A stretch of 64,000 nt of DNA. Origin: an uncultured Chloroflexia bacterium (GTDB lineage Bacteria > Chloroflexota > Chloroflexia > QHBQ01 > JADMIH01). This document shows positions 17,056 through 51,920 of the stretch, piece by piece (positions within the stretch are counted from its first letter, which is position 1; every line of letters starts with the position of its first letter). Position numbers and translations under genes: made by a program. The notes under the pieces are model-generated. The model saw only the letters and a program-made list of their open reading frames with translations. It did not search any database and was not told the DNA's origin. Location of the stretch: contig CAWCNY010000002.1 of assembly GCA_963797095.1 (NCBI GenBank), positions 1,024,001 to 1,088,000 of the forward strand, given 5' to 3'.

Positions 17056-17065
17056 AAGTAGAAGT

Positions 17066-18597: not shown

Positions 18598-18627
18598 ACT
18601 ATAACAGAGCGTAGATCTGATTGTCAA
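18598..18627 (-). promoter_or_regulatory. sigma70 promoter of the small-ORF transcript
   Basis: TTGACA-18 nt-TATAGT with extended -10 TG. Confidence 0.7.
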
Positions 18628-18855
18628 GGAGAAGTCATTAAGATCGGCATGAATACATCTACAGTAGGATGTATAATCGGCTGGCGGGTGTTGGCCCGCC
18701 ACAGACTGCCATTCTTTGCTTTTTGTTGAACGCACGCTAACTCTGATATAATTGAACGTACTTTGCCCGCGACCTTGCGTAAAAAGTGCGGTTAGGCACC
18801 CTCAATTCGCGCGCATTTATATCCCGTATTCCATTTTGGAGGAGGCTTACACAGA

Positions 18856-19701: not shown

Positions 19702-19860
19702 GGCTTAGTAGAAGATACGCAAGTTGCTAACGATGCCCGCCATTGGCGGGCATCAATCTTGATGATATGTAGTAAGGGAGAGCCGCGCAACTTTTCCACC
19801 CGGCTCTCCGTCATAGTAATATAAACATGGACGCAATGACGACCAGGAGGGAAGATACAC

Positions 19861-29600: not shown

Positions 29601-30960
29601 ATCGCCTGATGATCTGTGGGCAGTCGGATCGTGGGCGTACGCTCCTGAGCCATCCTATATATTGCACTGGAACGGCACACAATGGGCCAGAGTGGAGCCT
29701 GAGGGCAATATTTCGTCCGCGCTATCGGGTGTGGCTGCAATCGCAAGCGACAACGTATGGTTCGTGGGAGCAGATTCGAATGTGAGCCTGACGTTGCACT
29801 GGGATGGCACGTCGCTGGCGGTGGTGGACAACCCTCATGGTGGAGGAGTAAGCGCGCTATGGAAAGTGAGTGGCCTTCCCAATGGGGACGCCTGGGCGGT
29901 GGGTGAGCAAGATGGTGCGTCATTGGATACGCACGTAACGCTTGCGCAGCATTATCTTTCCTGCGTTTCCGCAACTTCTACCCCAACAGCTTCCGCTACT
30001 GCCACGCCTATGGGCACCGCGACAGTATCCGCCAGTGAAACTACTATTGCAACTTCAACCGGAACACCAACCCCTCTTGCTTCTGTAACCCACACGGACA
30101 CGACTACGCCCGTCATATCGACCGGAACATCGACCGAGATATCGACATCAACAGCCGCTCCGACGGACACCAGCGTAATTCCCACTCAATCCCCCACCGG
30201 CACGCGCACTCAAACACCTTCGGCTACTTCTACGGCCATAATCACCACCACGGCTAAATCGACGTCTACGGCAACAGCTACGGCTACCGCTAGCGCCTGT
30301 CCGGTGCAGTTCGCAGACGTGCCGGATGGGCATACTTTCTACTCCTTTGTGCGCTGCCTGGCTTGCAGGGGTATTCTGACAGGGTACGCTTGCGGGGGAG
30401 TGGGAGAGCCTTGTGACGGCAACAACGACCCCTATTTCCGCCCCAATAATGGGGTGACACGTGGGCAGATCGCCAAGATCGTGTCGGAAGCGGCAGGGTT
30501 CGATGAGGCTGTTTCGGGGCAGGCATTCGAGGATGTGCCCCCAGGCTCGACCTTCTATGTGTACGTGGAGAGGCTGGCAAGTAGAGGCGTTATGCAGGGC
30601 TATCCATGCGGTGGCGCGGGAGAGCCGTGCGGCACAGGCAGCCTCCCCTACTTCCGGCCCGGCGCTGGCGCTACGCGTGGGCAACTGGCAAAGATCGCAT
30701 CGAACGCTATAGAGTGGGCCGATTCGATCCCGGCGGGGCAGTATACCTTCGCGGATGTGCCGGTGGGGAGTGCGTTCCACCCATATATCGAGCGGATGCT
30801 GATGCACAGGCCGGGTGCTATGTCGGGGTATCCTTGCGGCGGCACGGAAGAGCCGTGCGACAGTGCTGGGAGGCCCTACTTCCGCCCAGGCAACACCCTT
30901 ACGCGGGGGCAGACCGCCAAGATCGTCACCAATACCTTCTTCCCGGAGTGTGTGCCGTAG
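26695..30960 (+). pseudogene. Large secreted HWDG-repeat beta-propeller protein with SLH tail, interrupted by one in-frame TAA (27679-27681)
   Basis: ORFs 26695..27681 and 27748..30960 share a frame; sequence reads WDG*SWEDIP inside a repeat; many NDVWAVG...HWDGxxW repeats. Confidence 0.8.
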
Positions 30961-30985
30961 TCCAGCGCCAATAGATGCTGTTAAG

Positions 30986-31064
30986 TAAGGGCACCCCTCG
31001 TGGGTGCCCTGTGTTCTTGCCACGATCTCTTCCCAACGGGGCGCCCACTAGGAGTGCCCCTACA
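30986..31064. repeat. REP-like double palindrome
   Basis: AGGGCACCC..GGGTGCCCT and GGGGCGCCC..GAGTGCCCCTAC. Confidence 0.6.
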
Positions 31065-31108
31065 GATAATTTGACCGCAAATCTGAGCACGTACCTTTTA
31101 TTCTGCTA

Positions 31109-31137
31109 TTGACAAGTAATTACTCTGCCTTTACACT
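31109..31137 (+). promoter_or_regulatory. sigma70 promoter
   Basis: TTGACA-17 nt-TACACT; the -10 lies in the first of two TACACTCTTATC direct repeats. Confidence 0.6.
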
Positions 31138-31230
31138 CTTATCTACACTCTTATCCGAAGCCAAACATTTATCTAATATTCCTCCCAGGGGCGCACCCGG
31201 CAAATATGCCACTATGAAGGGGGTAACACC

Positions 31231-33651
31231 ATGTACCGAATCAGGGAGATTCTATTAGCCCTGTGCCTGTTTGTACTCTGCCTGATGGTGGCGGGGATGG
31301 CGGGTGAAGCAGGAGCTTCCTACCCGGCCGGGAGCGCACCTGCAGGCACCGACCCCTACCATCATCTATCGGGCGTGGTAGCGATGCGATTGACCGGGGG
31401 TGACGGCCTGGGGATGGCTGATGGCGGAATGCACCCCGCTTCGTTTGCGTCGAACTTTGTGCGCAACCCACAATCGGTGTTTGGGAGCCTCCTTGCCCCA
31501 CCTGTGTTTGGCCCGAACGTGGATGCCACGCTCAATAACTCGGCGACCCAGAACGAAACGACCATAGGCATCGATCCAACCAGCGACCAGCGCGTGATCG
31601 CCGGGGCCAACGACTACAGGGCCAACCTTAAGCCGTATATCTATTACTCCACCGATGGCGGCGATACATGGGTCAATTACGCGGTGCCGGGCACTCACTC
31701 GATCTATTACGGCGACCCCGCGATGGCGTTCGACCGTGGAGGCTACGCCTACTTCAGCAATTTGGGCTACATCAATGTGTGCGACCCCTCCGGTGGGATG
31801 TACGTCAGCAATTCGACCGATTTTGGGGCGTCGTTCTCGGAGCCGATCACGGTGGCGACCAACTTCGTGGGTGGCGGGTTGGCGATCTTCCACGACAAAG
31901 AGTACGTGGCGGTAGACGACAACCCGTCCAGCCCCTACTCCGGCACCGTGTACCTGGGGTGGACCAAGTTCATGTTCCAGTCGGGCACAGGGTGCGGTGG
32001 CGTCAACAGCCAGTTGGGCGCGCCCATCGTCTTCTCGCGGTCGACAGATCACGGGCTGTCATGGTCGGTGCCTATCACGGCAAGCCCGCCTATCTCCAAC
32101 AACAACCAGGGGTCGCTACCTGTGATCGGCACCAACGGCGAGGTCTATCTCTACTACGTGGGCGCGGCCACTCAGAGCCAGATCAATTACAACTCGGTGC
32201 TCTTCTCGCGCTCGACCGACGGCGGGCAAACATTCCCGTTCTTCACGCGCATATCGGACCTGACCGACCTCCCAAGCCCGCTGCCGCCCACCAACTTCCG
32301 CAACAATCCGTTCGGGGCGATGGCAGCGGACAAGCAGATTTATGGGTATCTGTACGCGGTGTGGGCCGACTATCGCAACGGCGATGCCGATATTTTGCTT
32401 TCGCGCTCGACCGACGACGGAAATTCGTGGAGCGCACCACAGCGCGTAAACGACGACCCGGTAGCGAACGGCAAAGACCAATTCTTCCCCTGGATCACCG
32501 CATCTGCGGATGGAAGCATCCATATAGGGTGGTTCGATAGGCGCGAGGACGCGGCAAACCGCAACTATAAAGAGTACTATACGGTCTCTTATGACCACGG
32601 CGCGACGTGGGAGCCAAACGTGGCAGTTAGCAGCGCCGCCTCTAATCCCGGTACGTCTACGTTCATCGGGGACTATTCGGGGATAGGAGCGACCACCGGG
32701 GTGGTGATTCCAATCTGGACTGACATAAGGACTGGTACGAATCAGAACGCCTACGTGGCGCGGGGTGTATATACGGTAGGGCCAACGCTGACCCCCACAC
32801 CAACCGAAGCGCCCACGAACACGGCCACTCCGACGGCCACCGATACGCCTACCTCGTCGCCAACGCTTGTCAGCACCGCTACTGCCACCAGCACCAACAC
32901 TCCCGTTACGCCTCCGTCAAATACGCCAACAAATACTGCGGTCGTTCCGCCTACTGGCACGCCAACCAATACCCCCATAATTGTCCCTACACCCACCTCT
33001 ACCATGTGCCCCATCCAGTTCACCGATGTGCCTGAGGGTAGCACCTTCTACTCGTTCATCAGGTGCCTGGCGTGCCGGGGGATCATCAACGGCTATACGA
33101 CGGGATGCGTGACGGGAAGCCCCTGCTTCAAGCCGAACGATAATGTCACGAGGGGGCAGGTAGCCAAGATCGTGTCGAACGCGGCTGGATTCAACGAGCC
33201 TGCGACCAGCCAGCAGTACGAGGATGTGCCCGTTGGCTCTACCTTCTTCGACTTCATCTGGCGCTTGACCGTGCGGGGCTACGTCAACGGCTATCCATGC
33301 GGCGGGCCAGGGGAGCCTTGCGGGGGCGGCGGGTTGCCTTATTTCAGGCCCAACGCCGACGTGACGAGGGGGCAGATCACCAAGATCGTGTCGAATGCCG
33401 CGCAGTACAACGAAACAGCCACTGGGCAGCAGTTCCAGGACGTGGCCCCTGGTTCCACTTTCTATGACTTCATATACAGGTTGGTGATAAGAAACATCAT
33501 GTCGGGCTACCCGTGCGGAGGAGCGGGTGAGCCATGTGTAAGCCCCGACAACCTGCCTTATTTCAGGCCGGGAGCCAGCGCCACCAGGGGGCAGACATCG
33601 AAGATAGTAGCCAATACCTTCTATCCAAGTTGCGATACTCCCAGCAGATAG
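31231..33651 (+). CDS. Secreted sialidase-like (BNR) beta-propeller protein with SLH tail
   Basis: Signal peptide, QNET..DP, DKE, STDGG Asp-boxes, DQFFP, IGDY, PT linker, three SLH repeats. Confidence 0.88.
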   Translation: MYRIREILLALCLFVLCLMVAGMAGEAGASYPAGSAPAGTDPYHHLSGVVAMRLTGGDGLGMADGGMHPASFASNFVRNPQSVFGSLLAPPVFGPNVDATLNNSATQNETTIGIDPTSDQRVIAGANDYRANLKPYIYYSTDGGDTWVNYAVPGTHSIYYGDPAMAFDRGGYAYFSNLGYINVCDPSGGMYVSNSTDFGASFSEPITVATNFVGGGLAIFHDKEYVAVDDNPSSPYSGTVYLGWTKFMFQSGTGCGGVNSQLGAPIVFSRSTDHGLSWSVPITASPPISNNNQGSLPVIGTNGEVYLYYVGAATQSQINYNSVLFSRSTDGGQTFPFFTRISDLTDLPSPLPPTNFRNNPFGAMAADKQIYGYLYAVWADYRNGDADILLSRSTDDGNSWSAPQRVNDDPVANGKDQFFPWITASADGSIHIGWFDRREDAANRNYKEYYTVSYDHGATWEPNVAVSSAASNPGTSTFIGDYSGIGATTGVVIPIWTDIRTGTNQNAYVARGVYTVGPTLTPTPTEAPTNTATPTATDTPTSSPTLVSTATATSTNTPVTPPSNTPTNTAVVPPTGTPTNTPIIVPTPTSTMCPIQFTDVPEGSTFYSFIRCLACRGIINGYTTGCVTGSPCFKPNDNVTRGQVAKIVSNAAGFNEPATSQQYEDVPVGSTFFDFIWRLTVRGYVNGYPCGGPGEPCGGGGLPYFRPNADVTRGQITKIVSNAAQYNETATGQQFQDVAPGSTFYDFIYRLVIRNIMSGYPCGGAGEPCVSPDNLPYFRPGASATRGQTSKIVANTFYPSCDTPSR

Positions 33652-33668
33652 AATAGAAAGGCTCAGTC

Positions 33669-36600
33669 ATGAACAGATCGCCTGGCCGTGGGCTATGGTT
33701 GGCGTCGGCATCCCTGCTGCTGTTAGCTGTGATCGGGATCGCACTCCTTGCGCACTATACGGCCCAATCGTCACAAACCTCTCCTCCAACAGTCACAAAC
33801 TCCGCACGTAGCAGCGCGATGGGCCTGACAAGCCCGTGGCCGGGGGCCGAGCATGAAGGCTCGGAGCTACAGGAGATGGCCGACTACTGGTACCAGAGGC
33901 TGACCTATCCCACAGGCGTGCTCAACCCTGAGTGGATCTTGCAGGCCACCAAACAGGATCAACAGGTGCAGAGCGGCGTGCCCGCTGGCCGGGTGGTGTA
34001 TAACCGCGCCGAAAGCCAATCGCCCCTGGACCTCGATCCTAACAGCTTTCTATCGCTTGGGCCTAAGCCTTTGCAGTGGTTCATCGGGAACACAGGGGGA
34101 CGGGTCAATGCGATCGTGGTGGACCCTGTGGTCACAACCACCGCCTATCTGGGGGTGGCGGGCGGGGGTGTCTGGAAAAGCACCAACTGCTGCTCGCCTT
34201 CGACCGTGTGGTTGCCCGTTACGGATGTATCCTCGGTGCCAAGCATCGGCGTTGACGACCTGACCATCGACCCGAACGATCACAACGTGATATACGCGGG
34301 CACGGGCGACCTGAACTATACCCTGCCTGAGTATATCGTGGGCGGCGTGCTCAAGAGCACCGATGCGGGTGCTAGTTGGAGCGCGCTTGGGCTTGATGTG
34401 TTCAATGCCGCCTATCCGGTGCCAGGGGGCGCGCCTCCCGAAACGCAGGCCATCGGCAAGGTGAAAGTGGACCCCCGCGACAGCAACAAGATCGTGGCCG
34501 GCACCAAGAGCGGGCTGTTCGTCTCCTACGATGGAGGGGCCAACTGGGCCGGGCCGTGCTACACCAATCCCTATTCGACGCAGAGGCAGGACGTGACGGG
34601 CCTGCTGATGAGGGATACGGGCAGCTTCACCGAGTTATATGTGGCGCAGGGCACGCGCGGCTTCAGCCTGACCATCCAGCCAAGCATGGCCGAGAACGGG
34701 GCGAACGGCATATACAAGGCAGAGCTTGGGAGCAGTGGGTGCCCCGCCGGATGGTCGCTGATCACGCGCCAGGACAACGGCTGGCCCTCAGGCACGGGGA
34801 CCGGCACGCCTGGACACCTGGGTGGTGACAAATTAGGGCGTATAGATCTCGCGTTCGCGCCTGGCACTATTGGGCCGGGGAGCAGCAATGTAACTATCTA
34901 CGCGCAGGTGCAATCTACTCAGGGCAATGTAGGCGGCCAGTTGGGCGTGTGGCGCACCACCGATGGTGGCACAACCTGGAGCCAGCGGTCGAGCAGCAGC
35001 GCGCTTGTGCCGTGCCCCGGCTCGCCCTATGGCGATTTCCCGCAGAACTGGTTCGACCAGGGATTGGCCGTCGACCCGACAGACCTCAAGAACGTCTATA
35101 TGGACACCTTCGACCTGTGGCGTTCGACCGATGGGGGGGTTACGTTCACCGATATCACATGTGGGTACTCGTCGACGGCGCAGGCGCACCCCGACCACCA
35201 CGCTATAACATTCAGACCGGGCTCGACAAATGATCTGCTGGCGGGCACGGACGGTGGTGTGTATAACACAAGCGACGGCGGCACCTTCTGGCAGGAATTG
35301 AACGACACCTTAAGTACGCTTGAGTTTTACTCAGGGGATATAACAGCTGATTTCGCCAATTCCGACCACCCGGCGGCGGCAGGCGGTATGCAGGACAACG
35401 GCACCGCCGTAACCGAGTGGTTTGGCACGCCCGGCCCCTCGGCGTGGTCTGCCGTGCTGGGCGGTGATGGGATCTGGTCGCGGATTGAGCCTGTGCTGGG
35501 TCAGCGTTACTATGCCGAGGTGAACGGGGCGCGCCTCTTCGCGTCTGAAAGCGGCGGGTTTGGCGGCTACAACGAGATCACGGGCGGGTGGCGCTCGGCA
35601 CCGCACAACTACCTCTTGCCTTATGACCTGTACAAGTACGATTGCCCGGACACTGGCTGCACCCACGTGATAGTCGGTTCAAACGCGGTCAGCGAGACCG
35701 TGACCGGCGTTGCGCCGTGGATCAAAGTCAGCCCCGACTTCCCAGGCTACATCGAGAAACTGCACTATTCTGTGAGCCTCTCCACCACCGCCATATTCGG
35801 CACCAGCCAGGGGCAGGTGGTGTACGGCTTCGGGCTGGGGCAGGGCGTGATGGCGAACTGGGTGGACGTGACGGGCGGGAACGCGGTGTTGCCCAACAGG
35901 CCCATACTGGACGTGGCTACAGACCCTGTGAACCCCTTGATCGGGTACGCGGGGGTAGGAGGGTTCGGAGAGAACACTCCCGGCCACGAGGGGCACGTGT
36001 TCCGCGTGACCTGCACGGCGGATTGTGCCTCATTTGCGTGGGAGGACAAGAGCGGCAACCTGCCCGATGTACCTGTGGAGGCGATAGTGGCGAACCCCCT
36101 CTACCCACAGCAGATATTCGTGGGCACCGATTGGGGTCTGTATTACTCGGACGACATCACCGCAGGGGTGCCTGTCTGGCAGCGGTTCGACGCGGGGCTG
36201 CCGCACGCCTTCATATACGATATGCAGATCGACAGGGGCTTCACGGTGCTGTCGGTGTGGACGCGCAGCCGTGGGGCGTTCGTGTGGCCCCTGCCTGCCG
36301 GCCCTGTCGGTGGGCCGACGGTGACGCCAGGACCCGCAACTGCCACGGCTACAAGCAGCCCAACGGTTGTGCCTACCTCCACCGAGATGCCGACTGCAAC
36401 GAGCACCAGTACGAGCACCAGTATGAGTACCAGCACAAGCACCTCGACGGTTATTCCTTCCGATACGCCGTCCAGCACATATACCGTTGTGGCGGGAACC
36501 GCAACGCCGACTTTGTGCGCGATCAGCTTCACCGATGTGCCTGCGGGGAGCACCTTCTACGATTATGTGCAGTGCATGGCCTGTAAAGGGATCATCAACG

Positions 36601-37157
36601 GCTATACAACCGGCTGTGAGACGGGTAACCCGTGTTTCAGGCCTAATGCCAACGTGACGAGGGGTCAGCTATCGAAGATCGTGTCGAACGCGGCTGGCTT
36701 CCATGACGACCCCGGCAGACAATGGTTCGAGGATGTACCACCAGACTCGACCTTCTTCGACTTCATACAAAGGCTGGCGAACCGTGGGATCATCAATGGC
36801 TATCCGTGCGGTGGGCCCGGCGAGCCATGCGGGAGTGGGAGCCTGCTCTACTTCAGGCCGAACGCCAATGTGACGAGGGGTCAGCTATCGAAGATCGTGT
36901 CGAACGCGGTAGCATATAGTGACCCGCCGGGTGCGCAGCAGTTCGAGGACGTGTTGCCCGGCTCCACTTTCTATGACTATATCTGGAGGTTGGCCGACCG
37001 CGGCATAATGTCGGGCTACCAGTGCGGAGGGGTAGGAGAGCCTTGTGGAGGGGGAAGCCTGCCTTACTTCCGCCCATCCAACAATGCTACCAGGGGGCAG
37101 GCGAGCAAGATCGTGGCAAACACCTTCTTCCCAGCCTGCTCTACCCCGGACAGGTGA
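33669..37157 (+). CDS. Secreted BNR/VPS10-like double-propeller protein with SLH tail
   Basis: GGRVNAI..DP, GGVWKS, HPDHHA, GTDGG, GGMQDNG and GGDG motifs; SLH repeats. Confidence 0.88.
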   Translation: MNRSPGRGLWLASASLLLLAVIGIALLAHYTAQSSQTSPPTVTNSARSSAMGLTSPWPGAEHEGSELQEMADYWYQRLTYPTGVLNPEWILQATKQDQQVQSGVPAGRVVYNRAESQSPLDLDPNSFLSLGPKPLQWFIGNTGGRVNAIVVDPVVTTTAYLGVAGGGVWKSTNCCSPSTVWLPVTDVSSVPSIGVDDLTIDPNDHNVIYAGTGDLNYTLPEYIVGGVLKSTDAGASWSALGLDVFNAAYPVPGGAPPETQAIGKVKVDPRDSNKIVAGTKSGLFVSYDGGANWAGPCYTNPYSTQRQDVTGLLMRDTGSFTELYVAQGTRGFSLTIQPSMAENGANGIYKAELGSSGCPAGWSLITRQDNGWPSGTGTGTPGHLGGDKLGRIDLAFAPGTIGPGSSNVTIYAQVQSTQGNVGGQLGVWRTTDGGTTWSQRSSSSALVPCPGSPYGDFPQNWFDQGLAVDPTDLKNVYMDTFDLWRSTDGGVTFTDITCGYSSTAQAHPDHHAITFRPGSTNDLLAGTDGGVYNTSDGGTFWQELNDTLSTLEFYSGDITADFANSDHPAAAGGMQDNGTAVTEWFGTPGPSAWSAVLGGDGIWSRIEPVLGQRYYAEVNGARLFASESGGFGGYNEITGGWRSAPHNYLLPYDLYKYDCPDTGCTHVIVGSNAVSETVTGVAPWIKVSPDFPGYIEKLHYSVSLSTTAIFGTSQGQVVYGFGLGQGVMANWVDVTGGNAVLPNRPILDVATDPVNPLIGYAGVGGFGENTPGHEGHVFRVTCTADCASFAWEDKSGNLPDVPVEAIVANPLYPQQIFVGTDWGLYYSDDITAGVPVWQRFDAGLPHAFIYDMQIDRGFTVLSVWTRSRGAFVWPLPAGPVGGPTVTPGPATATATSSPTVVPTSTEMPTATSTSTSTSMSTSTSTSTVIPSDTPSSTYTVVAGTATPTLCAISFTDVPAGSTFYDYVQCMACKGIINGYTTGCETGNPCFRPNANVTRGQLSKIVSNAAGFHDDPGRQWFEDVPPDSTFFDFIQRLANRGIINGYPCGGPGEPCGSGSLLYFRPNANVTRGQLSKIVSNAVAYSDPPGAQQFEDVLPGSTFYDYIWRLADRGIMSGYQCGGVGEPCGGGSLPYFRPSNNATRGQASKIVANTFFPACSTPDR

Positions 37158-37327
37158 TCGCCTATGTAGAGATCGAGATCGTTGGTTCCTGATTCCTGGT
37201 TAGTGCGCGAGGGATCTTGTTCTTCGCTTATACTCTTGGGCGTGATACTCTCCTGATCGGGATCTTGGAACAGGACATTATTAGCCTGGTAGTCTATTTT
37301 GTAGCATGCAAAAGGAAGGAATCGTTT

Positions 37328-39787
37328 ATGTCATCAATCCGCAACTCGAATATGAAGTGGGTCATCGTGTTTGTGTTGGTGTTATTTTCATTGATGGTGC
37401 TAACCACTCTCTCTGAGCCGCAGACCCAGGCGGCCAATGCTTCCACACCCACCTGGTTGGCGGCGGTGCCGCTTCATCAGATCAATCCACCTCGCCGAGA
37501 GTCGGGGCCTCCCTCCGATGGTCCGGCTCCGCTGGTCGGTTTGCCGTCTCCGTTCAGGGCGTTGGATACACCGGTGTGGGGGGATAACGTGCGGGCGAAT
37601 ACCGACACACAGTCGCCTAATCGCGCCCAGCAAGAGCCAAGTATAGCGATCAACCCGACCAACCCGCTGAACGTGGTGGCTGCCGCCAAGGACGAGCGGG
37701 GAGGGGTCAACACCAAGCAGGTGTGGATCTATACGTCGACGGATGGCGGGCAGACCTGGCTCAACCAGCCGTTTCCTCATGCAACTCCAGCGCCGAGCTA
37801 TTCCAGCGACCCGGTCGTGAAGTTCAGCGACGATGGCATCTGCTACGTGGTATCGCTTCCATACGGGAGTGGCACCGTGGGCGTGCAGGTCGCTACCTCA
37901 ACCGATGGAGGCGTTACATTCGCCACAGGCACGCGGGTGACCACCAACGGCAACTCGGATAAAGAGTGGATGTGGGTCGATAACTACCCGTCCAGCCCCT
38001 ATTACCACAGGATGTACGTGGCCTGGATGGACTTCTCGCCCGGTTTCCGCGTGAATATCTCTACCGACCGGGGGCAGACGTGGGCTCAAAGCCCGCTGGG
38101 GCAGAGCGCGTACCAGTTCCCGATGCCGATTGTCTACCCGAACGGGGATGTGGTGGCGATCTTCGCCAACCCGTCTAACTTCGCGTACGTGCGATCTACC
38201 AATGGCGGCACTAGCTGGGCTTCACAACAGTCGATTGCGAATTATTCATACGCGAATTGCCCGCCCGACAATTCGGGCTGCGGCATCTGGCGTCTCAATT
38301 CGATCCCCGTGATCGCGGTGAACCCCAACAACGGCAACGCGGTTGTGGCCTGGGCCGATGGAGGCAGCCCCAACAACACCAGTACCATCAAGTTCTCGCG
38401 TGGGGCATCCAACGGAACGGTGTGGTCTGCGCCGGCGGTGCTTGCCGCGCCTGGTGTCGCCAACACCTACCAGGTAGAGCCGTGGGTAGAAGCCGACGAA
38501 AACGGCACCTTCCATGCTGTCTGGTATGACGATCGCTCGAACCCCAATACAAGTATATTCGACATCTATTACAGCCAATCCACCGACGACGGCCAGACCT
38601 GGAGCACCGCTGAGAGGATCAGCACCGCCACCAGCGACCTGCGCATAGGGATACCAAGCAGCTACGCGCTGGCCGCGGGCGACTATATTAACGTGACCGC
38701 GGCGGATGGGAATGTTTATGCGACATGGACCGACACGCGGGCAGGCAACGGCGAAGATATCTATGTGGTGCGCGGGATCATGGGCGGGGGCACGCCAACT
38801 CCCACACCTACGGGCACACCGCCCACCAGCACAGCCACGCGCACTTCGACTTCAACGTCCACATCTACATCTACGAGCACGCAAACAAATACGGCCACAC
38901 CCACAAGCACGCGTACCAATACCAGCGTGCCAACAAGCACGACAGGGCCAACAGATACGGCTGTCCCGACCGATACGCCGGGTGCGACTGGCACATCTGA
39001 GCCAACAAGCACGGCTGCGCCCACCGATACAGTAACCCCGGCACCCACAGACACCTCAACGAGTGTGGTGCCGTCCGCGACATCTACGTCCACGGCCCTG
39101 CCGACCGATACTGTGGTTGCCCCGACGGTCACGCCAACCTCGTGCGTGCTGCAATTCACCGATGTGCTGCCCGGCGATACCTTCTACGACAATATCAGGT
39201 GTCTTGCTTGCAGGGGCATCATCAACGGCTATTCGTCGGGGTGCGAGACCGGGAACCCTTGCTTCAGACCGGGGAACCTCGTTACCAGGGGGCAGATATC
39301 CAAGATAGTGTCCAACTCGGCTGGCTTCAATGGGGAGACCGGCCCGCAGCAGTACGAGGACGTGCCTCTCGGCTCGACCTTCTACGATTACATCTGGCGC
39401 TTGACTATCAGAGGGTACCTGAACGGCTATCCGTGCGGCGGGCCTGGCGAGCCTTGTGGAGCGGGGAACCTGCCTTACTTCAGGCCCAACACCAACGTCA
39501 CCAGGGGACAGCTAAGCAAGATCGTATCGGAAGCTGCCGGCTTCAACGAAGCATCTGGAGATCAGCAATTCGAGGATGTGCTGCCCGGCAGCACCTTCTA
39601 CGACTACATCTGGCGCTTGACCGACCGCAGCATCATGTCAGGCTACCCGTGCGGAGGGGTAGGAGAGCCCTGTGTAGACCCTGCCGACCTGCCATACTTC
39701 AGGCCAAGAGCCAACGCTACGAGAGGCCAAGCATCAAAGATCGTGGCTAATACCTTCTTGCCCGGCTGTGAAACGCCGGTGCGATAG
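37328..39787 (+). CDS. Secreted sialidase-like (BNR) beta-propeller protein with SLH tail
   Basis: Paralogous in layout to 31231..33651 (QQEP, SDP, DKE, GDY, WTDTR); AAGGA RBS. Confidence 0.88.
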   Translation: MSSIRNSNMKWVIVFVLVLFSLMVLTTLSEPQTQAANASTPTWLAAVPLHQINPPRRESGPPSDGPAPLVGLPSPFRALDTPVWGDNVRANTDTQSPNRAQQEPSIAINPTNPLNVVAAAKDERGGVNTKQVWIYTSTDGGQTWLNQPFPHATPAPSYSSDPVVKFSDDGICYVVSLPYGSGTVGVQVATSTDGGVTFATGTRVTTNGNSDKEWMWVDNYPSSPYYHRMYVAWMDFSPGFRVNISTDRGQTWAQSPLGQSAYQFPMPIVYPNGDVVAIFANPSNFAYVRSTNGGTSWASQQSIANYSYANCPPDNSGCGIWRLNSIPVIAVNPNNGNAVVAWADGGSPNNTSTIKFSRGASNGTVWSAPAVLAAPGVANTYQVEPWVEADENGTFHAVWYDDRSNPNTSIFDIYYSQSTDDGQTWSTAERISTATSDLRIGIPSSYALAAGDYINVTAADGNVYATWTDTRAGNGEDIYVVRGIMGGGTPTPTPTGTPPTSTATRTSTSTSTSTSTSTQTNTATPTSTRTNTSVPTSTTGPTDTAVPTDTPGATGTSEPTSTAAPTDTVTPAPTDTSTSVVPSATSTSTALPTDTVVAPTVTPTSCVLQFTDVLPGDTFYDNIRCLACRGIINGYSSGCETGNPCFRPGNLVTRGQISKIVSNSAGFNGETGPQQYEDVPLGSTFYDYIWRLTIRGYLNGYPCGGPGEPCGAGNLPYFRPNTNVTRGQLSKIVSEAAGFNEASGDQQFEDVLPGSTFYDYIWRLTDRSIMSGYPCGGVGEPCVDPADLPYFRPRANATRGQASKIVANTFLPGCETPVR

Positions 39788-39868: not shown

Positions 39869-41185
39869 TTACCTGCAATCCGGCCCATAAAGATCTCTAA
39901 GGAAATCGCGGCCTGCCTGCACGTCCATGTCGAAGTCGAGAGAGGTCTTGCCGTTGTTGAACGATTCCAGCGAGTGATTGAGGCGGGATTCGTTGCTGCC
40001 CGCGTCATACGTGCGCTCCAGGGCATCCAGGCCGCCTATGACCAGGTAGGCGGCAAGCCCGTTCATGTAGGCGCGTAGCTCTTCCTCAACCGTGCAGCCC
40101 CTGGGTATGGGCTGCACCCCGCCTGTCAGGTCGTAAGCGTGGGTGGCTTCGTGCGCCAGAATGCTGGCTATGGATGCTACGTCGGCATCGCGAAAGCTTC
40201 TTGATATGACTATGTAATATTGCTGTGTCCGGGTGCCCGACGAGTAGAACGCGCCCGCTACCCCTTCTTCGCTCACGTCCTCAAAGCTGACGAGCACGCG
40301 ATTTTCGATAATGACGGCAGGTATCCACTGGAACTCAGGTGTCCTGCCAAGAGCCTGCACCGCGGGCAACAAGGCGTCGTCCACAAGCGCATCGAGGCGA
40401 GGATCGTCGCTAAGGTCCGATTCGGCGGCTGGAATGGGTGTGGGCAGGATCACCCTGGCAAGAGGATCGAGGTTGATGTAGCGGGCGTATTCCACGCCCA
40501 GCAAACCAAGCTGCACGTTATGCTGCGGTTCGCGTTCGGGGTGCCACTCGAAGCGATTGCGCTCGAAGTACTGTACGGTATAGGGCTTGCCGTCGGTGGG
40601 GCTGACCTCCACAAACTCCTCCGAGATGGGATAGCCGAAGACGGCCAGCCCGCCGTTGTTCTGCCAGTATGTCAGGAAGGCGTTGGCTAGATTATGGCCT
40701 GTCTGTGTGAAAAAGAATGAGGTGGGGGTGTTCTGGCCCGTGGACGGAGATTGGAAGATGAGGCCGCGAGCCTGGGACATAATAGCGCCGAGACGGGTCA
40801 GCAGGATGTCATTGTTGATGTTGGGGGAAAGTTCGGGGTGGAATTCGAGGCGGGCGCGTTCCAGGTACTGCACGGTGAGGCCATCTTCCACCAAAGGCTC
40901 GGTGAGGGGGAGGCCTAGGATGGAGGTTGCCCCGTGGGTTTCCCAGTAGTTGAGGAAGGCCCCGCGCAGGAAGTGGGCGGTCTGAGTGAAGTAGCGTACC
41001 CTCCCTTCGCTGATGGAGGTAGGGGCCGGGGTGACGTAGCTTGGAGATTGGAGGGCAGCGGCGCTGCCGGCTGCGAGCGAGAGCCACTGCGGGAGGCCCG
41101 CGATAACGAGGGCCAGGATGAGGAGGACGGCGCGCGGTAGACGGCGCGGCCCAAATGGTTTGCGTGTTAGGCCTGGTATGTGCAT
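39869..41185 (-). CDS. Secreted protein with two FxxTGH-type repeats and an HExxH metallopeptidase-like domain
   Basis: Signal peptide; FTQT(A/G)HxLxxAFLxYWxxxG..G(Y/L)P..QY(F/L)ERxRxE twice; ILAHEATHAYD..EEE; start placed at MHIPG. Confidence 0.78.
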   Translation of the reverse strand: MHIPGLTRKPFGPRRLPRAVLLILALVIAGLPQWLSLAAGSAAALQSPSYVTPAPTSISEGRVRYFTQTAHFLRGAFLNYWETHGATSILGLPLTEPLVEDGLTVQYLERARLEFHPELSPNINNDILLTRLGAIMSQARGLIFQSPSTGQNTPTSFFFTQTGHNLANAFLTYWQNNGGLAVFGYPISEEFVEVSPTDGKPYTVQYFERNRFEWHPEREPQHNVQLGLLGVEYARYINLDPLARVILPTPIPAAESDLSDDPRLDALVDDALLPAVQALGRTPEFQWIPAVIIENRVLVSFEDVSEEGVAGAFYSSGTRTQQYYIVISRSFRDADVASIASILAHEATHAYDLTGGVQPIPRGCTVEEELRAYMNGLAAYLVIGGLDALERTYDAGSNESRLNHSLESFNNGKTSLDFDMDVQAGRDFLRDLYGPDCR

Positions 41186-41296
41186 AATATTATCCTCTTC
41201 ACCAACCTGTTTATGGGCGATTATATCAGGTTCTTGTATTTTCGTATGCCTGTGGGCCGCGAGCCGGTATCCAATGATACTACGCATGGAGGTTAT

Positions 41297-42694
41297 ATGG
41301 ACAGATTGATTATACAGAATGCCCGGTTGATCGACGGCACGGGCGCTGCCCCGCGTGAAGGGGCCACCGTAGTGGTGGAGGGCGGCAAGATAACCGATGT
41401 GCAATACGAGCGGTTTCCTGAAGAGTTCGACCGTGCCATATTCGAGAAGCTGGAGGCTCGCGAGCAAGAGATAGTGAGGAAGCGGTACGGGCTGGAAGGG
41501 GAGCGCACCCGCAGCAAGCAGGAACTGGCTAAAGAGATTGGAATGGATCCGGACAAGCTCCGCAAGGCCGAAGCGCGTATATTGCGCAAGCTCAGGAGGC
41601 ATGGGGAGGACACACCGGAACCTGAGCCTGCCGAGAAGGGCGCGCACGTCATGGACCTGCAAGGAGCAACTCTTATGCCAGGGTTGATCAACGCTCACTG
41701 CCACGTGATGATGGACGCAGGCCCGGACCCGATTGGAAGAACGGCAAGCACTAGCCTGGCGCATGTGCTCCTCGAAGCCGTTAAGCGGTGTGAGGCGATG
41801 CTGAGGGCCGGCATCACCACGGCCCGTGACCTCGGCGGTTACGAGTGGGGAGAGTTGGCTTTGCGTGATGCGATTGCTTCGGGAGATTTGAAGGGGCCGC
41901 GCCTGGTGTGTGCAGGCAAGATCATCACGATGACAGGCGGGCACGGTTGGCCCATCGGGTTAGAGAGCGATGGGCCTGACGAAGTGCGCAAGTCGGCTCG
42001 CCTGAATTTGAAGAAAGGGGCCGATTGTCTGAAGTTCATGGCTACGGGCGGCGTGCTGACGCCGGGGGTAGAGCCGGGCGCGGCCCAACTTTCGGAGGCT
42101 GAGATGCGGGCGGGGATAGAGGAGGCACACAACGTTGGCAAGCACACTGCCAGCCACGCTCAGGGCACAGGCGGCATCAAGAACGCGTTGAGGGCGGGCA
42201 TCGACACGATAGAGCACGGGATCTTCCTGGACGAGGAGTGCATCGAGTTGATGGTGAAGCAGGGCACCGTGTTCGTGCCGACGCTCGCCGCGCCCTTCAG
42301 GATAGTGGAGGCGGGCGAAGCGAAGGGGATACCCGACTACGCGCTCAGGAAGTCTCTGGCCGTGATGGACTCGCACTTCAAGTCATTCGAGTGGGCGGCG
42401 CAAGCGGGAGTTACTATCGCTGCAGGCAACGACGGTGGCACGCCCTTCAACCCATCGGAGGACCTTGTGACCGAGGTGTGGCTGATGGTGGAGCATGGCC
42501 TGAGCGCGCTTGCCGCCATCCGGGCCGCCACCTATGGCTCGGCGCGCGCCATGGGGTTGTCGGAGGAGGTGGGCACTGTCCAGAAGGGGATGTGGGCCGA
42601 CCTGCTGATCCTGGAAAAGGGCGCGGACCCCCTGGACGATGTGAACGCGCTGGGGAAGGTGGCGACCGTGATCAAGCATGGGGTGGTAGTGTAG
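41297..42694 (+). CDS. Amidohydrolase (prolidase-like) with inserted sigma-70 region-4-like domain
   Basis: IQNARLIDGTG, PGLINAHCH, KFMATGG, SHAQG, IEHG and GNDGG motifs; insert LEAREQEIVRKRYGL...AEARILRKLR. Confidence 0.88.
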   Translation: MDRLIIQNARLIDGTGAAPREGATVVVEGGKITDVQYERFPEEFDRAIFEKLEAREQEIVRKRYGLEGERTRSKQELAKEIGMDPDKLRKAEARILRKLRRHGEDTPEPEPAEKGAHVMDLQGATLMPGLINAHCHVMMDAGPDPIGRTASTSLAHVLLEAVKRCEAMLRAGITTARDLGGYEWGELALRDAIASGDLKGPRLVCAGKIITMTGGHGWPIGLESDGPDEVRKSARLNLKKGADCLKFMATGGVLTPGVEPGAAQLSEAEMRAGIEEAHNVGKHTASHAQGTGGIKNALRAGIDTIEHGIFLDEECIELMVKQGTVFVPTLAAPFRIVEAGEAKGIPDYALRKSLAVMDSHFKSFEWAAQAGVTIAAGNDGGTPFNPSEDLVTEVWLMVEHGLSALAAIRAATYGSARAMGLSEEVGTVQKGMWADLLILEKGADPLDDVNALGKVATVIKHGVVV

Positions 42695-42732
42695 AATTGG
42701 GGGCAAAACATTTATTCACAGGAGAAGATAGA

Positions 42733-43272
42733 ATGTCCAACGGTGAAACTGAAGTACCGGATAGTATTGAAGAGGCCGAGCAGCCGGAATTGATCACGGC
42801 CACCTACCCTGACGAAGCATCCGCAAAATCGGGTTTCGGGGCGCTCAGGGACGCGCAAAAGGCGGAGGCGGTGTGGCTGAAGGATGTGGCGCTGGTGGTG
42901 CGCGACGCCGACAACACCCTGCACCTGAAAGAGACGGAAGATATGGCCGCTCCCGAAGGGGCGCTCTATGGCGGCACGATAGGTGCCGTACTGGGCATGA
43001 TCGCCGGGCCGCTTGGTCTGGTGCTGGGGGGTGCGCTCGGCGCGCTGGTCGGAGGGGCCGCGGCCCAGGCCAGGGACGCCGACATCGAGGACGATTGGCT
43101 GCGAGAACTGGGAGAGTCGCTGCCGCCGGGCGCGGGTATGGTGGTAGCGATCACTACCGGCATGTGGGTGCCCCAGGTTGAGGCCACGCTGACCGCGTCG
43201 GGCGGCAAGGTGCTAACCCGAACTATCGATGCTGCATTGGCTGAGCAGCTAGGGTTGGACGAGGGGGGATAG
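42733..43272 (+). CDS. DUF1269 family membrane protein
   Basis: DVALVVRD, glycine zipper GALYGGTIGAVLG..GGALGA, DIEDDWLRELGESLPPG. Confidence 0.85.
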   Translation: MSNGETEVPDSIEEAEQPELITATYPDEASAKSGFGALRDAQKAEAVWLKDVALVVRDADNTLHLKETEDMAAPEGALYGGTIGAVLGMIAGPLGLVLGGALGALVGGAAAQARDADIEDDWLRELGESLPPGAGMVVAITTGMWVPQVEATLTASGGKVLTRTIDAALAEQLGLDEGG

Positions 43273-45939: not shown

Positions 45940-48435
45940 CTACGCCATGCCGTGCTCGATAGCGTAGCGCGTGGCGGCAGCACGCGACGAAACGTTCAAT
46001 TTTCTGTAGATGGTACGGAGATGGGCATTTATCGTATAGAGACTGAGAAAGAGGCGCTCGGCCAGTTCTGCGTTTGACAGGCCATGGGCGAGTAGCGCAA
46101 GCACCTCAACTTCGCGAGCAGAAAGGCCAGGGTCTTCCTGGGCTTGCGGGCGCGCTGTGCCGATACCGCTTGCGGGGCCGGGTGCGGCTGCCCTCTCTGC
46201 CTGGCTGGGCGTATCCTTGCGCGAGATCGCTTCGGTCGGGGTGAGTCTCAGGCCTTCGGCCCAGGTCGTATCGAACTGCGCGACACCCAATACCTGGCGG
46301 CTGGTCTCCAGGCATGAGACATAGGTGGTTTGGTCGAATCGGTCCAGGCGGTCGGTCAGGTCGTCGTAGATAGCGTTGGCGGTAGCCAGCAAGAGGGTGG
46401 CGCGCCTGGGGTCACTGTGTGCGCACGCAATTTCGGCCAGCGAGATCAGGCCATAGGCTATATTCCACTGGTCGCCAAGCCTGAGGTTCATATCGAGGGC
46501 CTGGAGTGCGTATTCTTCAGCGATGCCTAAATCGCCCCTGTGTAAATGGGCGCGTCCCAGGCTGTCGAGCGAAAGCGATAAGCGTGTTTGGTCTCCCAGA
46601 TCGCGGTAAATTCGCACGCTTTGTTCCAGATAGCCTATCGCGGAGGGATCTCTTGCATTCATCATCACCAGGCCGATGTTGTTGAGCGCACCCGCAATAC
46701 CGGGCTTGTAATTGATGCCACTCCATATCTGGAGGCATTCACGATAGGCGTTCAGTGCGCCCTCATCGTCACCGAAATCGCGCAGATTGTTGCCCAGGCC
46801 CAGCAGGGCCGTGGTGGTGCCCATCAGGTCGTTGCGCTCACGCGCTATATCAAGCGCCTCCTGGTAGTAGACACGTGCCTGCTCGATGCGGGTCATATAC
46901 GTTGCTATTCTGGCGGCCGCGCGCAATGCCTGCGCACGCTCTTCAGTGCGTATAGAGGTGGTATGGTTGAGAAATGCTTCCAGCCATTCGCTACCTTCAT
47001 GCAAGTGGCTCCGCGAATGCCAGAAGCGCGCCAGGTGCCCCGTGATGACGAGGCCCATGCCAAGCCGTTCGGATGTGTCCACGTCAGCCGGTTCCGAAAG
47101 GCACCAGCCGAGAACCACCCGTATATTGGCGATTTCCCGCTCAAGCCTGTCGAGCCAGAGTGGTTGATCCCGTCCGAAAAGTTCTGCGCCCGCTTCTTCG
47201 GCCAACTTTGTGATATAGCGAGCAAGCGACGCAAGAGCCGGGGCTTCCTCACCTTTTGCCTGCAATTGCTCATACGCGTACTCGCGTAGCGTCTCCAGCA
47301 TGGCTATGCGAAGCTCCTCTTCGTCCTCGTCATTCTCTACGACCTTCAAGAGGCTCTTGTTGGCAAGCGAGGTGACGGGATTGAGGAGATCAGGCTCCAG
47401 GTGAACATCTCGTAACTCAGGGGGGAGGCTTTCGGCCATACCCGCACAAACCGCTTCGGCGGCTTCCAGGGTACAGCCTCCTGAAAAGACGGACAGGAGC
47501 CGGAAGATACGTTGCTCCGTGTTTGTGAGCAGATCGTAGCTCCAATTGATGGCGTTGTGGAGGGTTTGCTGGCGGGGAGGCAGGTCCTGCGCTCCCCCGG
47601 TCAGGACTTGCAGGCGCTTTTGCAGCCGGGCAAGCAAGGCCCTGGGCGAGAGAAACTTGATGCGCGCCGCCGCAAGCTCCAGCGCCAGAGGCAGGCCATC
47701 GAGGCGGGCGCATATGTCGGCAATGATCTGGGCGTTGTCACTGTCAATAGCGAAGTCGGGCTTGACCGAGCGGGCGCGCTGCATGAATAGCTGGACCGCA
47801 GGGCTGCTCTCTATCGGTTCAAGGTCTGGTCCATCCTTCCGTTTGCCGCCGGCCTGGGGTAGGGGCAACGGCTCTACTTCCATCTCATGCTCGCCGCGCA
47901 GGTTCAGAATCGCACGACTTGTCACCAGCAGCTTCAAGTGTGGGCACGCGGCCATCAACTCGGCTAGTATAGGAGCCGCAGCTGTTAGCTGCTCGAAATT
48001 ATCGAGCACAAGGAGCGCGCCCATATCCTTCATGTAGCCGATCAGGGTTGGAAGGATCGTTTCGTCGGGGAGGGTGTATAGCTCAAGAGATTGCGAGATG
48101 GCCGAGAGGAGCAGCCCGGCATCCGTGATATCTTGCAACGGGACGAAGAAGACTCCGTCGGGGAAGCTTTCCATAAGGTCGGCAGCGATAGCCAGGGCAA
48201 GGCGGGTTTTGCCCACGCCGCCCGGCCCATGGAGGGTGAGCAAGCGAATGTCGGGCTCGAGCAAAAGGTCTGCTGCACGAACGCACTCGCTATCGCGACC
48301 TATGAGAGGCGTTGGCGGGGTGGGGAGATTGTCCCCAGGTGCCGGAGGGTGGGTTCTCTCGCGCCAGAGTGTGCCTTTCAGAGTTGAAGGTCGTAGAGGC
48401 ATTATCGATTGGATTGATGACAGTGATGATTGCAC
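45940..48435 (-). CDS. ATPase-TPR-LuxR HTH transcriptional regulator
   Basis: [10 protein letters not shown] Walker [25 protein letters not shown] repeats, [13 protein letters not shown] LuxR HTH; start uncertain. Confidence 0.92.
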
Positions 48436-50871: not shown

Positions 50872-51920
50872 TGCCGATATGCTAGATAGGGAAAGCAAGC
50901 TGCTTGAGGTGCAAGAAGTCTGCCTTACCCATGAGACGATTAATAAAGATGCACAGAGTGTGCGCAGCCAACTTGGAGTGCAGGCGAGCACACAATCCTG
51001 AGAAAGTGTAAGCGTGAGTGATTTCGATGTTGAACTGCTCGGTGAGTTGACCATTCACAGTCTCCACAATCTGGCGGGCACTGTTGATCAAGCTGCTGAC
51101 CAGTTGCTGCACGAACACAGGCATTTGGCTGATAGGGTGACGCTTCTGGTTGCGGCGAGGCAGTGTTATGAGGTTGATGTCATTGTGAAGGCGCAACTGC
51201 TCAGCCTGGTAAGTGTCAATGAAGCCTTTGTCAGCCACAGCATCCAAATGGGAGTGCCCACTCAGCAGGGAAGCCCCCGCTTCTTGGTCGGAGATGTTGG
51301 CTCCAACCAACTCGAAGTCCAAGATGGCCCCACCCAACGTGATGAGCAGATGCAGTTTGTAGCCGAAGATGGTCTTCTTCTTGGTGCAAACTCTCCCAAA
51401 AGCCGCTCCACTTCCGAGCCAATCCCCTCGTCGGCCAGAGCTAGGCACCAGGTGAAAGCCAATCACCTCTACTGGCAGAGCGTCAAGGGCACACTGACGG
51501 TCTTGGGCGATGTCGAGGCGGGTAAGAGCGATGCGCCTGATCATGTTGAAAGCCTGCGCCAGATTACACCTTCTTCTGTTGAGGCGGCTTTGAGAGGGTA
51601 TGTGAGAGAAGAGGTTGAGGTGGCGGTAGGAGGCCCAGTTGCTGAGCAGTTCGGTCTCTACGTCCCACCCTTTGCACTCACCGACCAGCACCATCGTGAT
51701 CAACTCGCTATCAGAGCACTCCGGTTGGGGACCAGGACGCTCAAACAGATGCTTCACCTGTTTCCAAAGGTCATCAACCGTGCAGTACATATACAAGCAG
51801 AAATCCTCAAAGTCGGTTATCATTGGGCTACCCTCCGATGTTTGGTATTTGGTCTTGATAACCGCTTACCTATCACATCGGAGGTTCCCTTGTCAAAGCT
51901 TTTCAACTAGCATATCGGCA
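50872..51920 (-). mobile_element. IS982 family insertion sequence
   Basis: Perfect terminal IR TGCCGATATGCTAG at both ends, flanked by a TAATA duplication. Confidence 0.9.
50882..51823 (-). CDS. IS982 family DDE transposase
   Basis: SDSELIT, SRLNRRR, DALP, GYKLH, ADKGF and RQIVETVNGQL motifs. Confidence 0.93.
   Translation of the reverse strand: MITDFEDFCLYMYCTVDDLWKQVKHLFERPGPQPECSDSELITMVLVGECKGWDVETELLSNWASYRHLNLFSHIPSQSRLNRRRCNLAQAFNMIRRIALTRLDIAQDRQCALDALPVEVIGFHLVPSSGRRGDWLGSGAAFGRVCTKKKTIFGYKLHLLITLGGAILDFELVGANISDQEAGASLLSGHSHLDAVADKGFIDTYQAEQLRLHNDINLITLPRRNQKRHPISQMPVFVQQLVSSLINSARQIVETVNGQLTEQFNIEITHAYTFSGLCARLHSKLAAHTLCIFINRLMGKADFLHLKQLAFPI

Follow-up and report, generated by a model that had tools for sequence, protein, structure and literature searches.

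A primary sigma factor region 4 probably captured within a loop of a Chloroflexia metallo-amidohydrolase

A gene in a 64,000-nucleotide stretch of DNA from a soil-type Chloroflexia bacterium (hereafter the window; contig CAWCNY010000002.1 of assembly GCA_963797095.1) encodes an amidohydrolase with an internal four-helix domain that resembles region 4 of sigma-70 factors. The gene occupies positions 41297..42694 of the plus strand, stop codon included, as read from the list of open reading frames (ORFs), the translation, and Pfam matches, and its 465-residue product is referred to here as P0002. We put at roughly 0.9 the probability that this architecture is a real, vertically inherited, in-frame capture of a Chloroflexia primary sigma region 4 in the β-strand 3–4 loop of a COG1228 metallo-amidohydrolase. 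The sequences place the capture as a single event in the ancestor of one Chloroflexia subclade, with the lineage's own primary sigma factor as the most likely donor. What the domain does today is far less certain, and four possible roles are weighed below.

The insert begins directly after the first three β-strands of a small N-terminal β-sandwich domain (residues 1–35, 41297..41401, ending in GGKITDV; strands 3–11, 20–28, and 31–36 in the AlphaFold 2 model). A preliminary description of this DNA had reported extra in-frame residues after VEGGKITDV and before VMDLQGATLMPGLINAHCH, where amidohydrolases were said normally to have a short loop, and both flanks and the quoted insert were indeed found in frame. 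Of 7999 candidates scored in a search of 5.8 billion proteins, 4109 proved to be relatives at E ≤ 0.001; the best 120 were used, and the loop was compared in the 110 that reach at least 380 residues, 10 shorter fragments being dropped. The segment aligned to residues 36–118 of P0002 spans 82–90 residues in 19 of these 110 relatives and 8–27 residues in the other 91, which bears out the short loop. The net extra length is ~69–75 residues, at nucleotides 41402–41650 as compared with the 41405–41632 given earlier.

Within the insert, an N-terminal linker (residues 36–45, 41402..41431) is poorly conserved in the alignment and has no regular secondary structure in the model. It is followed by the four-helix homologue of sigma-70 regions 4.1 and 4.2 (residues 46–101, 41432..41599), which is supported by the AlphaFold 2 model, phmmer against the PDB, TIGR02393, and Foldseek. 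The last part of this homologue, GMDPDKLRKAEARILRKLRR (residues 82–101, 41540..41599, net charge +5), is the counterpart of the −35 recognition helix of region 4.2, as identified by column comparison with 34 Chloroflexia-type primary sigma factors. A C-terminal linker (residues 102–117, 41600..41647) is rich in Pro, Glu, and Gly, predicted to be disordered, and unalignable between subclades. All of these features lie on the plus strand.

The likeness of the insert to sigma region 4 is, by sequence, far above chance. In a phmmer search of the 83-residue insert against PDB chains, the best match was RpoD region 4 (4g8x; E = 3.1e-8, 54 residues without a gap), followed by dozens of SigA, RpoD, and RpoS chains. 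The NCBIfam model TIGR02393 (RpoD_Cterm) matches the insert with E = 1.3e-9 over profile positions 171–227 of 238. The AlphaFold 2 model of full-length P0002, built from a 30-row alignment with a mean predicted local distance difference test score (pLDDT) of 85.9, contains three β-strands within residues 3–36, then helices at 46–51, 54–64, 74–81, and 85–101, then the remaining sandwich strands and the barrel. Low-confidence linkers flank the helices, with pLDDT below 50 at residues 103–112. A model of the insert by itself (4-row alignment, pLDDT 71) was compared with the PDB by Foldseek, and the top 50 matches are all sigma region 4, with query-normalised TM-scores of 0.56–0.70 and root-mean-square deviations (rmsd) of 1.2–3.9 Å. 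Thermus thermophilus sigma-A is among the best of these (rmsd 1.4 Å over 63 residues, query-normalised TM-score 0.70), and 1ku7, a sigma region 4 on −35 DNA, is also in this set. The models are consistent with a sigma-4 fold that extends on two flexible tethers from the strand 3–4 loop of the small β-sandwich domain. The region 4 pattern recognized in the preliminary description is therefore that of a true homologue, as judged from TIGR02393, the PDB matches, and the four-helix fold predicted at residues 46–101 in the AlphaFold check that it had called for.

P0002 is not a sigma factor, as regions 2 and 3 are absent from its sequence: a Pfam search gave no Sigma70_r2 match, and for Sigma70_r3 only a 14-bit partial match (E = 0.042) that falls within the insert. 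Unlike the primary sigma factor, it lacks regions 1.2, 2, and 3 and so cannot act as one. The insert is also reminiscent of the LuxR/GerE helix-turn-helix, which has a related four-helix fold, and JGI names the relative P0019 a 'DNA-binding CsgD family transcriptional regulator'. The window insert differs in being specifically primary-sigma region 4 in sequence, and the GerE/LuxR family PF00196 has no Pfam match to P0001 or P0002 at E ≤ 10.

The 19 insert-bearing proteins, each representing one cluster among the 110 near-full-length relatives, are 61–77% identical to P0002 over their full length and derive from JGI, ENA, NCBI, and Logan assemblies, so the search for the same architecture proposed at the outset succeeded. 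In a second set, GTDB with a single genome for each species, 80 of 174 confirmed relatives were used; the insert is present, judged by match length, in 3 of these 80 loci (L001, L002, and L003), all of them Chloroflexia or Chloroflexota metagenome-assembled genomes. The window gene itself lies on a 1.37 Mb contig. That an assembly chimera or mis-joined reads produced an artificial fusion is vanishingly improbable: the insert occupies an identical position in 19 clusters of diverse source, the inserts diverge in step with the enzyme core, and the three reference-genome loci carry it as well. The GC content of 0.60–0.61 continues across the insert without a compositional break, and no flanking repeats surround it apart from a 12-nt match within conserved coding motifs. 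Because the insert recurs in independent assemblies, it is real and inherited and a chimera is excluded, which clears the caveat attached to the preliminary description. An intein, intron, or mobile element was also considered and rejected, because the reading frame is kept, conservation is at the protein level, and the source is the host, with no trace of such an element in flanking repeats or composition.

The origin of the domain was approached through match ranking and signature residues. A profile built from the 19 inserts and compared with longer proteins gave 399 matches at E ≤ 1e-6 among 8000 candidates scored. Insert-bearing amidohydrolases rank first, including the fragments P0272 and P0309, followed by 34 primary sigma factors (P0273–P0306), three of which are named by their sources as Chloroflexia or Chloroflexota; no other enzyme family with the insert is present among the best 120 profile matches. 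Region 4 of these 34 sigma factors is almost invariant (...MRYGL.DDRPRTLEEVAK.FGITRERIRQIETRILRKLRY) and carries IETRILRKL, in place of which the common IEAKALRKL is found in the sigma factors ranked next. The exact string ETRIL occurs in 12 of the 19 inserts, and this shared signature makes the primary sigma factor of the lineage itself the most likely donor. In pairwise BLASTP, the window insert is 48% identical to the sigma-A P0281 over 58 residues (E = 9e-14), and the fragment P0309 is identical to a Chloroflexia sigma factor at 34 of 41 aligned positions. Chloroflexia primary sigma region 4 (for example P0281 residues 467–524) and the inserts thus have in common the predicted four-helix fold, ETRIL, and RYGL. 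They differ in that all 20 inserts have G after RYGLx where all 34 sigma factors have D, that RERIRQ reads PDKLRK in P0002, and that the inserts vary widely whereas most positions of the genuine region 4 do not vary among the 34 sigma factors.

The insert columns were taken out of the alignment before trees were calculated, so that only the enzyme contributed to them. In a quick tree of 82 rows (28 of the 110 left out), all 19 insert-bearing proteins fall in a 25-row clade with a Shimodaira–Hasegawa-like approximate likelihood ratio support of 92, and the same clade is recovered in a careful tree of 41 rows with support of 95/94. Nested in it are six proteins without the insert: P0013, P0027, P0035, P0038, P0043, and P0064. 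A minimum of six changes is required on the careful tree, five of which are forced by its starred branches, and a tree uniting all 19 insert-bearing proteins, a group delimited with knowledge of the quick tree, is rejected with an approximately unbiased test p value of 0.00015. One gain followed by about five losses is the simplest reading. Three of these losses left scars. P0035, P0038, and the locus L005 keep ANIAR.DP..EK and DDAT, which are the insert flanks of their sister P0008; P0064 retains the C-terminal linker of P0024 (R.AQ..A.EDD); and P0043 retains the N-terminal one as far as SDLT (QSG..SDLT). In P0024 itself, the RYGL motif is degraded to RLPIGGG.

We further investigated the residues through which sigma-70 reads the −35 element, which we take to be R584, E585, R586, R588, and Q589 in Escherichia coli numbering, by comparing the insert columns with those of the 34 sigma factors. 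Subclade B, the sister group, largely keeps these residues; among its 10 sequences, one of which is the fragment P0272, R584 is found in 6, E585 in 10, R586 in 7, R588 in 10, and Q589 in 8. In the window's subclade A (also 10 sequences), R584 is replaced by P in 7 and R586 by Q in 8, E585 and Q589 are variable, and R588 is kept in all 10, which gives a consensus of P-x-Q-L-R at these positions. P0002 has R584→P, E585→D, R586→K, and Q589→K; its translation and the column comparison agree with the earlier statement that the helix RERIRQIE is rewritten to PDKLRKAE. Subclade A has conserved positions of its own that are expected to be surface-exposed, namely EPHER in 8 of 10 sequences and K22 and K58 in all 10, and such positions are conserved within each subclade.

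Selection was estimated from the four available nucleotide sequences (the window, L001, L002, and L003). Within subclades, the ratio of nonsynonymous to synonymous substitution rates (dN/dS) for the window against L001 is 0.41 in region 4, 0.66 in the linkers, and 0.10 in the core, and for L001 against L003 it is 0.22, 0.86, and 0.11, respectively. These values suggest that the insert is under purifying selection, stronger than that on the linkers, and that its constraint is much below that of the enzyme and far below that of a real sigma-A region 4. Selection above that on the linkers, together with the conserved positions expected at the surface, argues that the insert is more than junk.

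Tentatively, we favor a role in which the insert is a dispensable, tethered, DNA-docking helix-turn-helix that makes the enzyme a trigger enzyme, an account that we hold at well under even odds. The folded four-helix helix-turn-helix would sit on two flexible linkers of 10–16 residues, freed from the near-total constraint of a real sigma-A region 4 with purifying selection remaining, and a probably oligomeric enzyme would sit on DNA at promoters and couple peptide or amino-acid status to transcription. Subclade B, which retains most of the −35-reading residues, would be expected to have −35-like specificity. Given the replacement of these residues in the window's subclade, P0002 would bind with altered or low specificity, its region 4.2 helix being strongly basic, rather than read a −35 box. 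A less probable elaboration is that a multimeric peptidase displays several sigma-4 copies and that these could, depending on substrate, occupy −35-like DNA or else compete for the flap of RNA polymerase or for proteins directed at sigma-4.

A number of observations weigh against a DNA-docking role or against the homology on which it builds. The Pfam family PF04545 (Sigma70_r4) stays below its gathering score of 24.1, with 20.6 bits for the insert alone and 16.6 for the whole protein (residues 50–100), and no Foldseek match of the insert-only model reaches E ≤ 1e-3, the best being 2.9e-3. About five deletions of the insert among 25 related proteins imply that it is dispensable. Four of the six sequence pairs show saturated synonymous sites in region 4, which leaves the contrast in dN/dS to the two pairs given above. 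In all 19 members, the per-site deviation of the region 4 part from the subclade consensus is 1.15–3.14 times that of the core. P0002 keeps R588 only, and most base-reading residues are replaced throughout subclade A. The 55-residue domain has a net charge of 0 or below (−2 to 0) in 9 of 19 members as compared with +5 for sigma-A region 4, which argues against a DNA-binding role across the family. An isolated sigma region 4 binds DNA only weakly on its own. Finally, the order of genes is the same in L003, which has the insert, and in its close relative L005, from which it is deleted, and a GATTATA(A/T/C)CA or ATTATA(A/C)C element is found in all nine intergenic regions compared, four from insert-bearing and five from insertless loci. 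Conserved, family-wide reading of −35 DNA is unlikely. With regard to the Pfam scan suggested earlier, Amidohydro_1 is confirmed on residues 125–465 and Sigma70_r4 is not confirmed within P0002; a precomputed PF04545 label is attached to 12 of the 19 insert-bearing relatives.

The main alternative is a tolerated passenger, a functionless sigma-4 copy in a permissive surface loop that stays folded because an unfolded 80-residue loop would be harmful and that disappears by slow decay and clean in-frame deletion. We consider this nearly as likely as DNA docking. It accords with the independent deletions in the 25-row clade and the flank remnants that they left in P0035/P0038/L005, P0064, and P0043, and with an apparent decay series that runs from P0309, through the degraded RYGL of P0024, to the deletion in P0064. 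It accords as well with the faster evolution of the region 4 part, of which the window copy, at 2.43 times the core, is the highest in subclade A and no outlier; with a proportion of nonsynonymous differences (pN) that between subclades approaches that of the linkers (0.49 versus 0.53, window against L002); with a charge that is not conserved (family range −2 to +6, P0002 +6); and with a gene context that is the same with and without the insert. A passenger is harder to reconcile with the within-subclade dN/dS of the domain, which is clearly below that of the linkers in both pairs, and with the retention of positions expected to be solvent-exposed in 7–10 of 10 members where the linkers are unalignable. 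Bacterial genomes have a deletion bias, and despite it the insert has outlasted saturation of its synonymous sites.

Docking to protein rather than to DNA seems less probable. The domain might tether the enzyme to RNA polymerase through the β-flap tip, or act as a decoy that binds or titrates proteins directed at region 4 of sigma-A, for instance anti-sigma factors, activators, or proteins of phage. Its derivation from the host's own sigma-A region 4 fits this proposal, as do the sigma-A residues that run invariant through all 20 inserts, which include L551, E555 (19 of 20), R562, G564, R588, E591, and L595 in what we take to be the E. coli numbering. Among the solved structures that match the model are complexes of sigma region 4 with phage G1 ORF67, with WhiB proteins, and with the flap-tip helix, which shows that this fold is a frequent site of protein docking. 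Set against this, no partner gene travels with the insert, the insert is often lost, and the surroundings offer no defense-system context, the PADLOC scan returning only a match to the sigma-like tail of MzaA (E = 2.6e-4). A prediction of the complex between the insert (residues 8–72 of alignment A2) and the E. coli RpoB flap 831–937, a stand-in from another organism and run with no controls, gave a score of 0.01 against a mark of 0.32, which by the rule of the tool weighs neither for binding nor against it.

An intramolecular or oligomeric role with no link to transcription is the least probable of the four. Here the domain would pack on a neighboring subunit or at the active-site entrance and tune stability, assembly, or substrate access. 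The nearest solved relatives (3be7, 3feq, 8ihq, and 9kov) were deposited with 8 chains per entry, which makes multimeric contacts plausible; an isolated sigma region 4 exposes a hydrophobic groove that needs a partner, and in several of the PDB entries that were matched, region 4 is fused to the flap-tip helix. The long, disordered, fast-evolving linkers suggest a loose tether instead of fixed packing, and the insertless sisters evidently function without the domain. Of the earlier interpretation of the gene as an enzyme moonlighting in transcription control, the homology, the loop site, the helix replacement, the metal ligands, and the absence of a chimera all stand, and control of transcription is supported neither way.

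The remainder of P0002 (residues 118–465, 41648..42691, plus strand) comprises the other β-sandwich strands and a (β/α)8 metal-dependent hydrolase barrel, as assigned by Foldseek and phmmer. The Pfam family PF01979 (Amidohydro_1) matches residues 125–465 over profile positions 1–345 of 345 (E = 1.9e-43; 149.5 bits against a cut-off of 25), and NARLIDGTG near the N-terminus is kept across the amidohydrolase family in the alignment. The HxH motif H134-C135-H136 (CAC TGC CAC, 41696..41704) has both histidines invariant, as are K246, H287, H307, and D379, in 30 of 30 aligned sequences, so that the earlier report of intact metal ligands holds. We take these six positions, by alignment to 9kov, to be the binuclear-metal ligand set of HxH, carboxylated Lys, His, His, and Asp; every position expected of a binuclear-metal amidohydrolase is present. 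In a phmmer search against the PDB, 9kov and 3mtw match P0002 at E = 1e-59. By Foldseek, the full-length model is closest to the L-Lys/L-Arg carboxypeptidase Cc2672 (3mtw; E = 2.9e-36, target-normalised TM-score 0.89), followed by prolidases, an arginine carboxypeptidase, and ochratoxin amidohydrolases, the same proteins that top the sequence search.

Sequence and model together place P0002 as a COG1228-type metallo-amidohydrolase of the Cc2672-like group of the amidohydrolase superfamily. Its COG1228 relatives, namely Cc2672 (3MTW), a Zn-dependent arginine carboxypeptidase (3BE7), prolidases (3FEQ/3N2C and 2QS8), and ochratoxin amidohydrolases (8IHQ and 4C5Y), share the HxH/K/H/H/D ligands and the layout of N- and C-terminal β-sandwich plus barrel, with target-normalised TM-scores of 0.84–0.89, Foldseek E-values down to 2.9e-36, and sequence E-values of 1e-59 to 1e-40. 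They are only 26–30% identical to P0002 and have no domain in the strand 3–4 loop. The NCBIfam equivalog for the Caulobacter-type Xaa-Pro dipeptidase (NF051886) scores 314.3 bits against a cut-off of 500, indicating family likeness only, and therefore no substrate is given to P0002. With its catalytic barrel intact and every metal ligand in place, the protein appears to remain an enzyme. The listed ORF extends over 41180–42694; the start codon is most plausibly the ATG at 41297 because GGAGG lies 5 nt before it.

The neighboring gene on the minus strand (39869..41185) is divergent from the amidohydrolase gene and encodes a 438-residue protein with a signal-peptide-like N-terminus and a C-terminal HEATH (HExxH) motif. 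Full-length homologues of it (54–73% identity) adjoin the amidohydrolase gene in 10 of 13 loci, with the insert or without it (L001–L006, L009, L013, L016, and L019). Members of this family have ~440–490 residues, a repeated 'F.QTGH.....F..YW...GG....G.P...E' motif, and the C-terminal HEATH. The family matches of the 438-residue protein are weak (DUF2268, a Zn-protease, E = 0.08; LGFP, E = 0.025), and a protein atlas search with it gave no usable match. Its sequence is compatible with a secreted zinc protease, and it may represent an uncharacterised metalloprotease family. Because this neighbor adjoins the amidohydrolase gene in so many of the loci, a protease–peptidase pair is suggested, and P0002 is probably a cytosolic peptidase that acts downstream of the secreted HExxH protein. 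The downstream DUF1269 gene is common to 1 of 13 loci.

The two divergent genes are separated by a 111-bp intergenic region (41186..41296). Read on the opposite strand, GATTATATCA at 41219–41228 becomes TGATATAATC, which forms an extended −10 element (TGnTATAAT) facing the minus-strand gene. No insert-specific operator was found in the divergent intergenic region, which has only this common extended −10, and four insert-bearing loci give such a comparison little power. A promoter and terminator scan of 40900–43000 returned no terminator and a single, different promoter-like site, which is weak (shuffled sequences would be expected to give 0.6). Short tandem repeats with units of ~7–15 nt, of the form CCCTTAATCCCTAACT, occupy 1960–2140 of L001 upstream of its amidohydrolase gene, and ACGAATT/AATTCGT forms an inverted pair of arrays at 7880–7960 in the corresponding region of L004; the window's intergenic region has none of these repeats.

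No sigma factor gene is present within the window. When PADLOC was applied to five neighbors, four had no match, and the fifth, an 831-residue STAND-type NTPase (45940–48435, minus strand; NB-ARC/AAA_22) with TPR repeats and a C-terminal LuxR/GerE helix-turn-helix, matched TPR and CARF3 models only, weakly and in its tail. Elsewhere in the window, four very large surface proteins with S-layer-homology (SLH) domains are encoded in a row at 27748–39787 (plus strand); BNR or sortilin-like propeller parts occur in three of them, and a long Thr/Pro/Ser-rich linker in the one at 37217–39787. An additional SLH-Kelch protein (60640–62814) and a small SLH ORF (89–436) lie on the same strand. A TnpB-type gene (8877–10043, plus strand; OrfB_IS605, Cas12f1-like TNB, and HTH_OrfB_IS605 domains) is located between citrate synthase (7383–8573) and panB (6410–7285) on one side and panC (10142–10984) on the other, and apparently splits the pantothenate genes. 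A DDE transposase (DDE_Tnp_1_3/DDE_Tnp_1) is encoded at 50882–51823 on the minus strand. Ten successive ORFs of 100–450 residues at 10990–21219 have no Pfam match at E ≤ 1e-5; they were called by length only, and some may not be genes.

Region 4 is known outside sigma factors as stand-alone Sigma70_r4 proteins of 100–140 residues and as tandem forms with up to 9 copies, free or repeated and not inserted in enzymes. An exhaustive representative search with the insert in a 1.84-billion-protein library gave 544 matches at E ≤ 1e-3, led by tandem Sigma70_r4 array proteins and then by sigma factors and small region 4 proteins, with no insert-bearing amidohydrolase recognisable among them; these are missing there presumably since the representatives of the 50%-identity clusters are insertless. 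A word-indexed search with residues 36–118 alone returned only the query among 76 candidates, which, given the limit of 5-residue words, is no sign of uniqueness. The best insert matches in the library (P0122–P0132) are long tandem arrays of Sigma70_r4: P0122 has 938 residues with 9 matched stretches (PF04545, E = 1e-75), and the other members have 6–10 stretches. We know of no described function for such proteins.

PutA, BirA, and NadR are trigger enzymes or enzyme–regulator fusions, and further precedents are provided by the enzyme/DNA-binding-domain regulators RbkR (PMC5397151) and BzdR (PMC3602430) and by PepA at carAB (PMC6245113). Such proteins resemble P0002 in that a metabolic enzyme is joined to a helix-turn-helix-type fold and in that the gene borders a divergent promoter region that also serves a functionally related gene. 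In the known cases, the DNA-binding domain is terminal (in PepA, it is the enzyme surface itself) and from a transcription-factor family, whereas the putative one of P0002 is internal and sigma-derived. In our literature search, no published internal sigma-derived insert in an amidohydrolase was found, nor any report pairing Sigma70_r4 with an amidohydrolase. Enzyme-plus-helix-turn-helix regulators are already known, and annotation pipelines already flag the domain.

Enzymes that gain DNA-binding domains are thought to be the origin of many regulators, and the early stages are rarely seen. Here, one clade presents a series that includes the donor sigma-A region 4, near-pristine copies (34 of 41 positions), a rewritten recognition helix, degraded copies, and deletions with flank scars. 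If the domain is inert, it would exemplify how long a folded passenger survives in a permissive loop and would show which loop of an industrially used amidohydrolase fold tolerates an 80-residue insertion. If it is active, it would be the first sigma-derived module working inside an enzyme and a natural test of an isolated region 4. Should it prove to be a transcription-linked sensor, which we regard as unlikely, these proteins would be a trigger enzyme or a sigma-4 decoy built from a sigma factor, not from a transcription-factor family, and seen at varied stages of refinement and loss within one clade.

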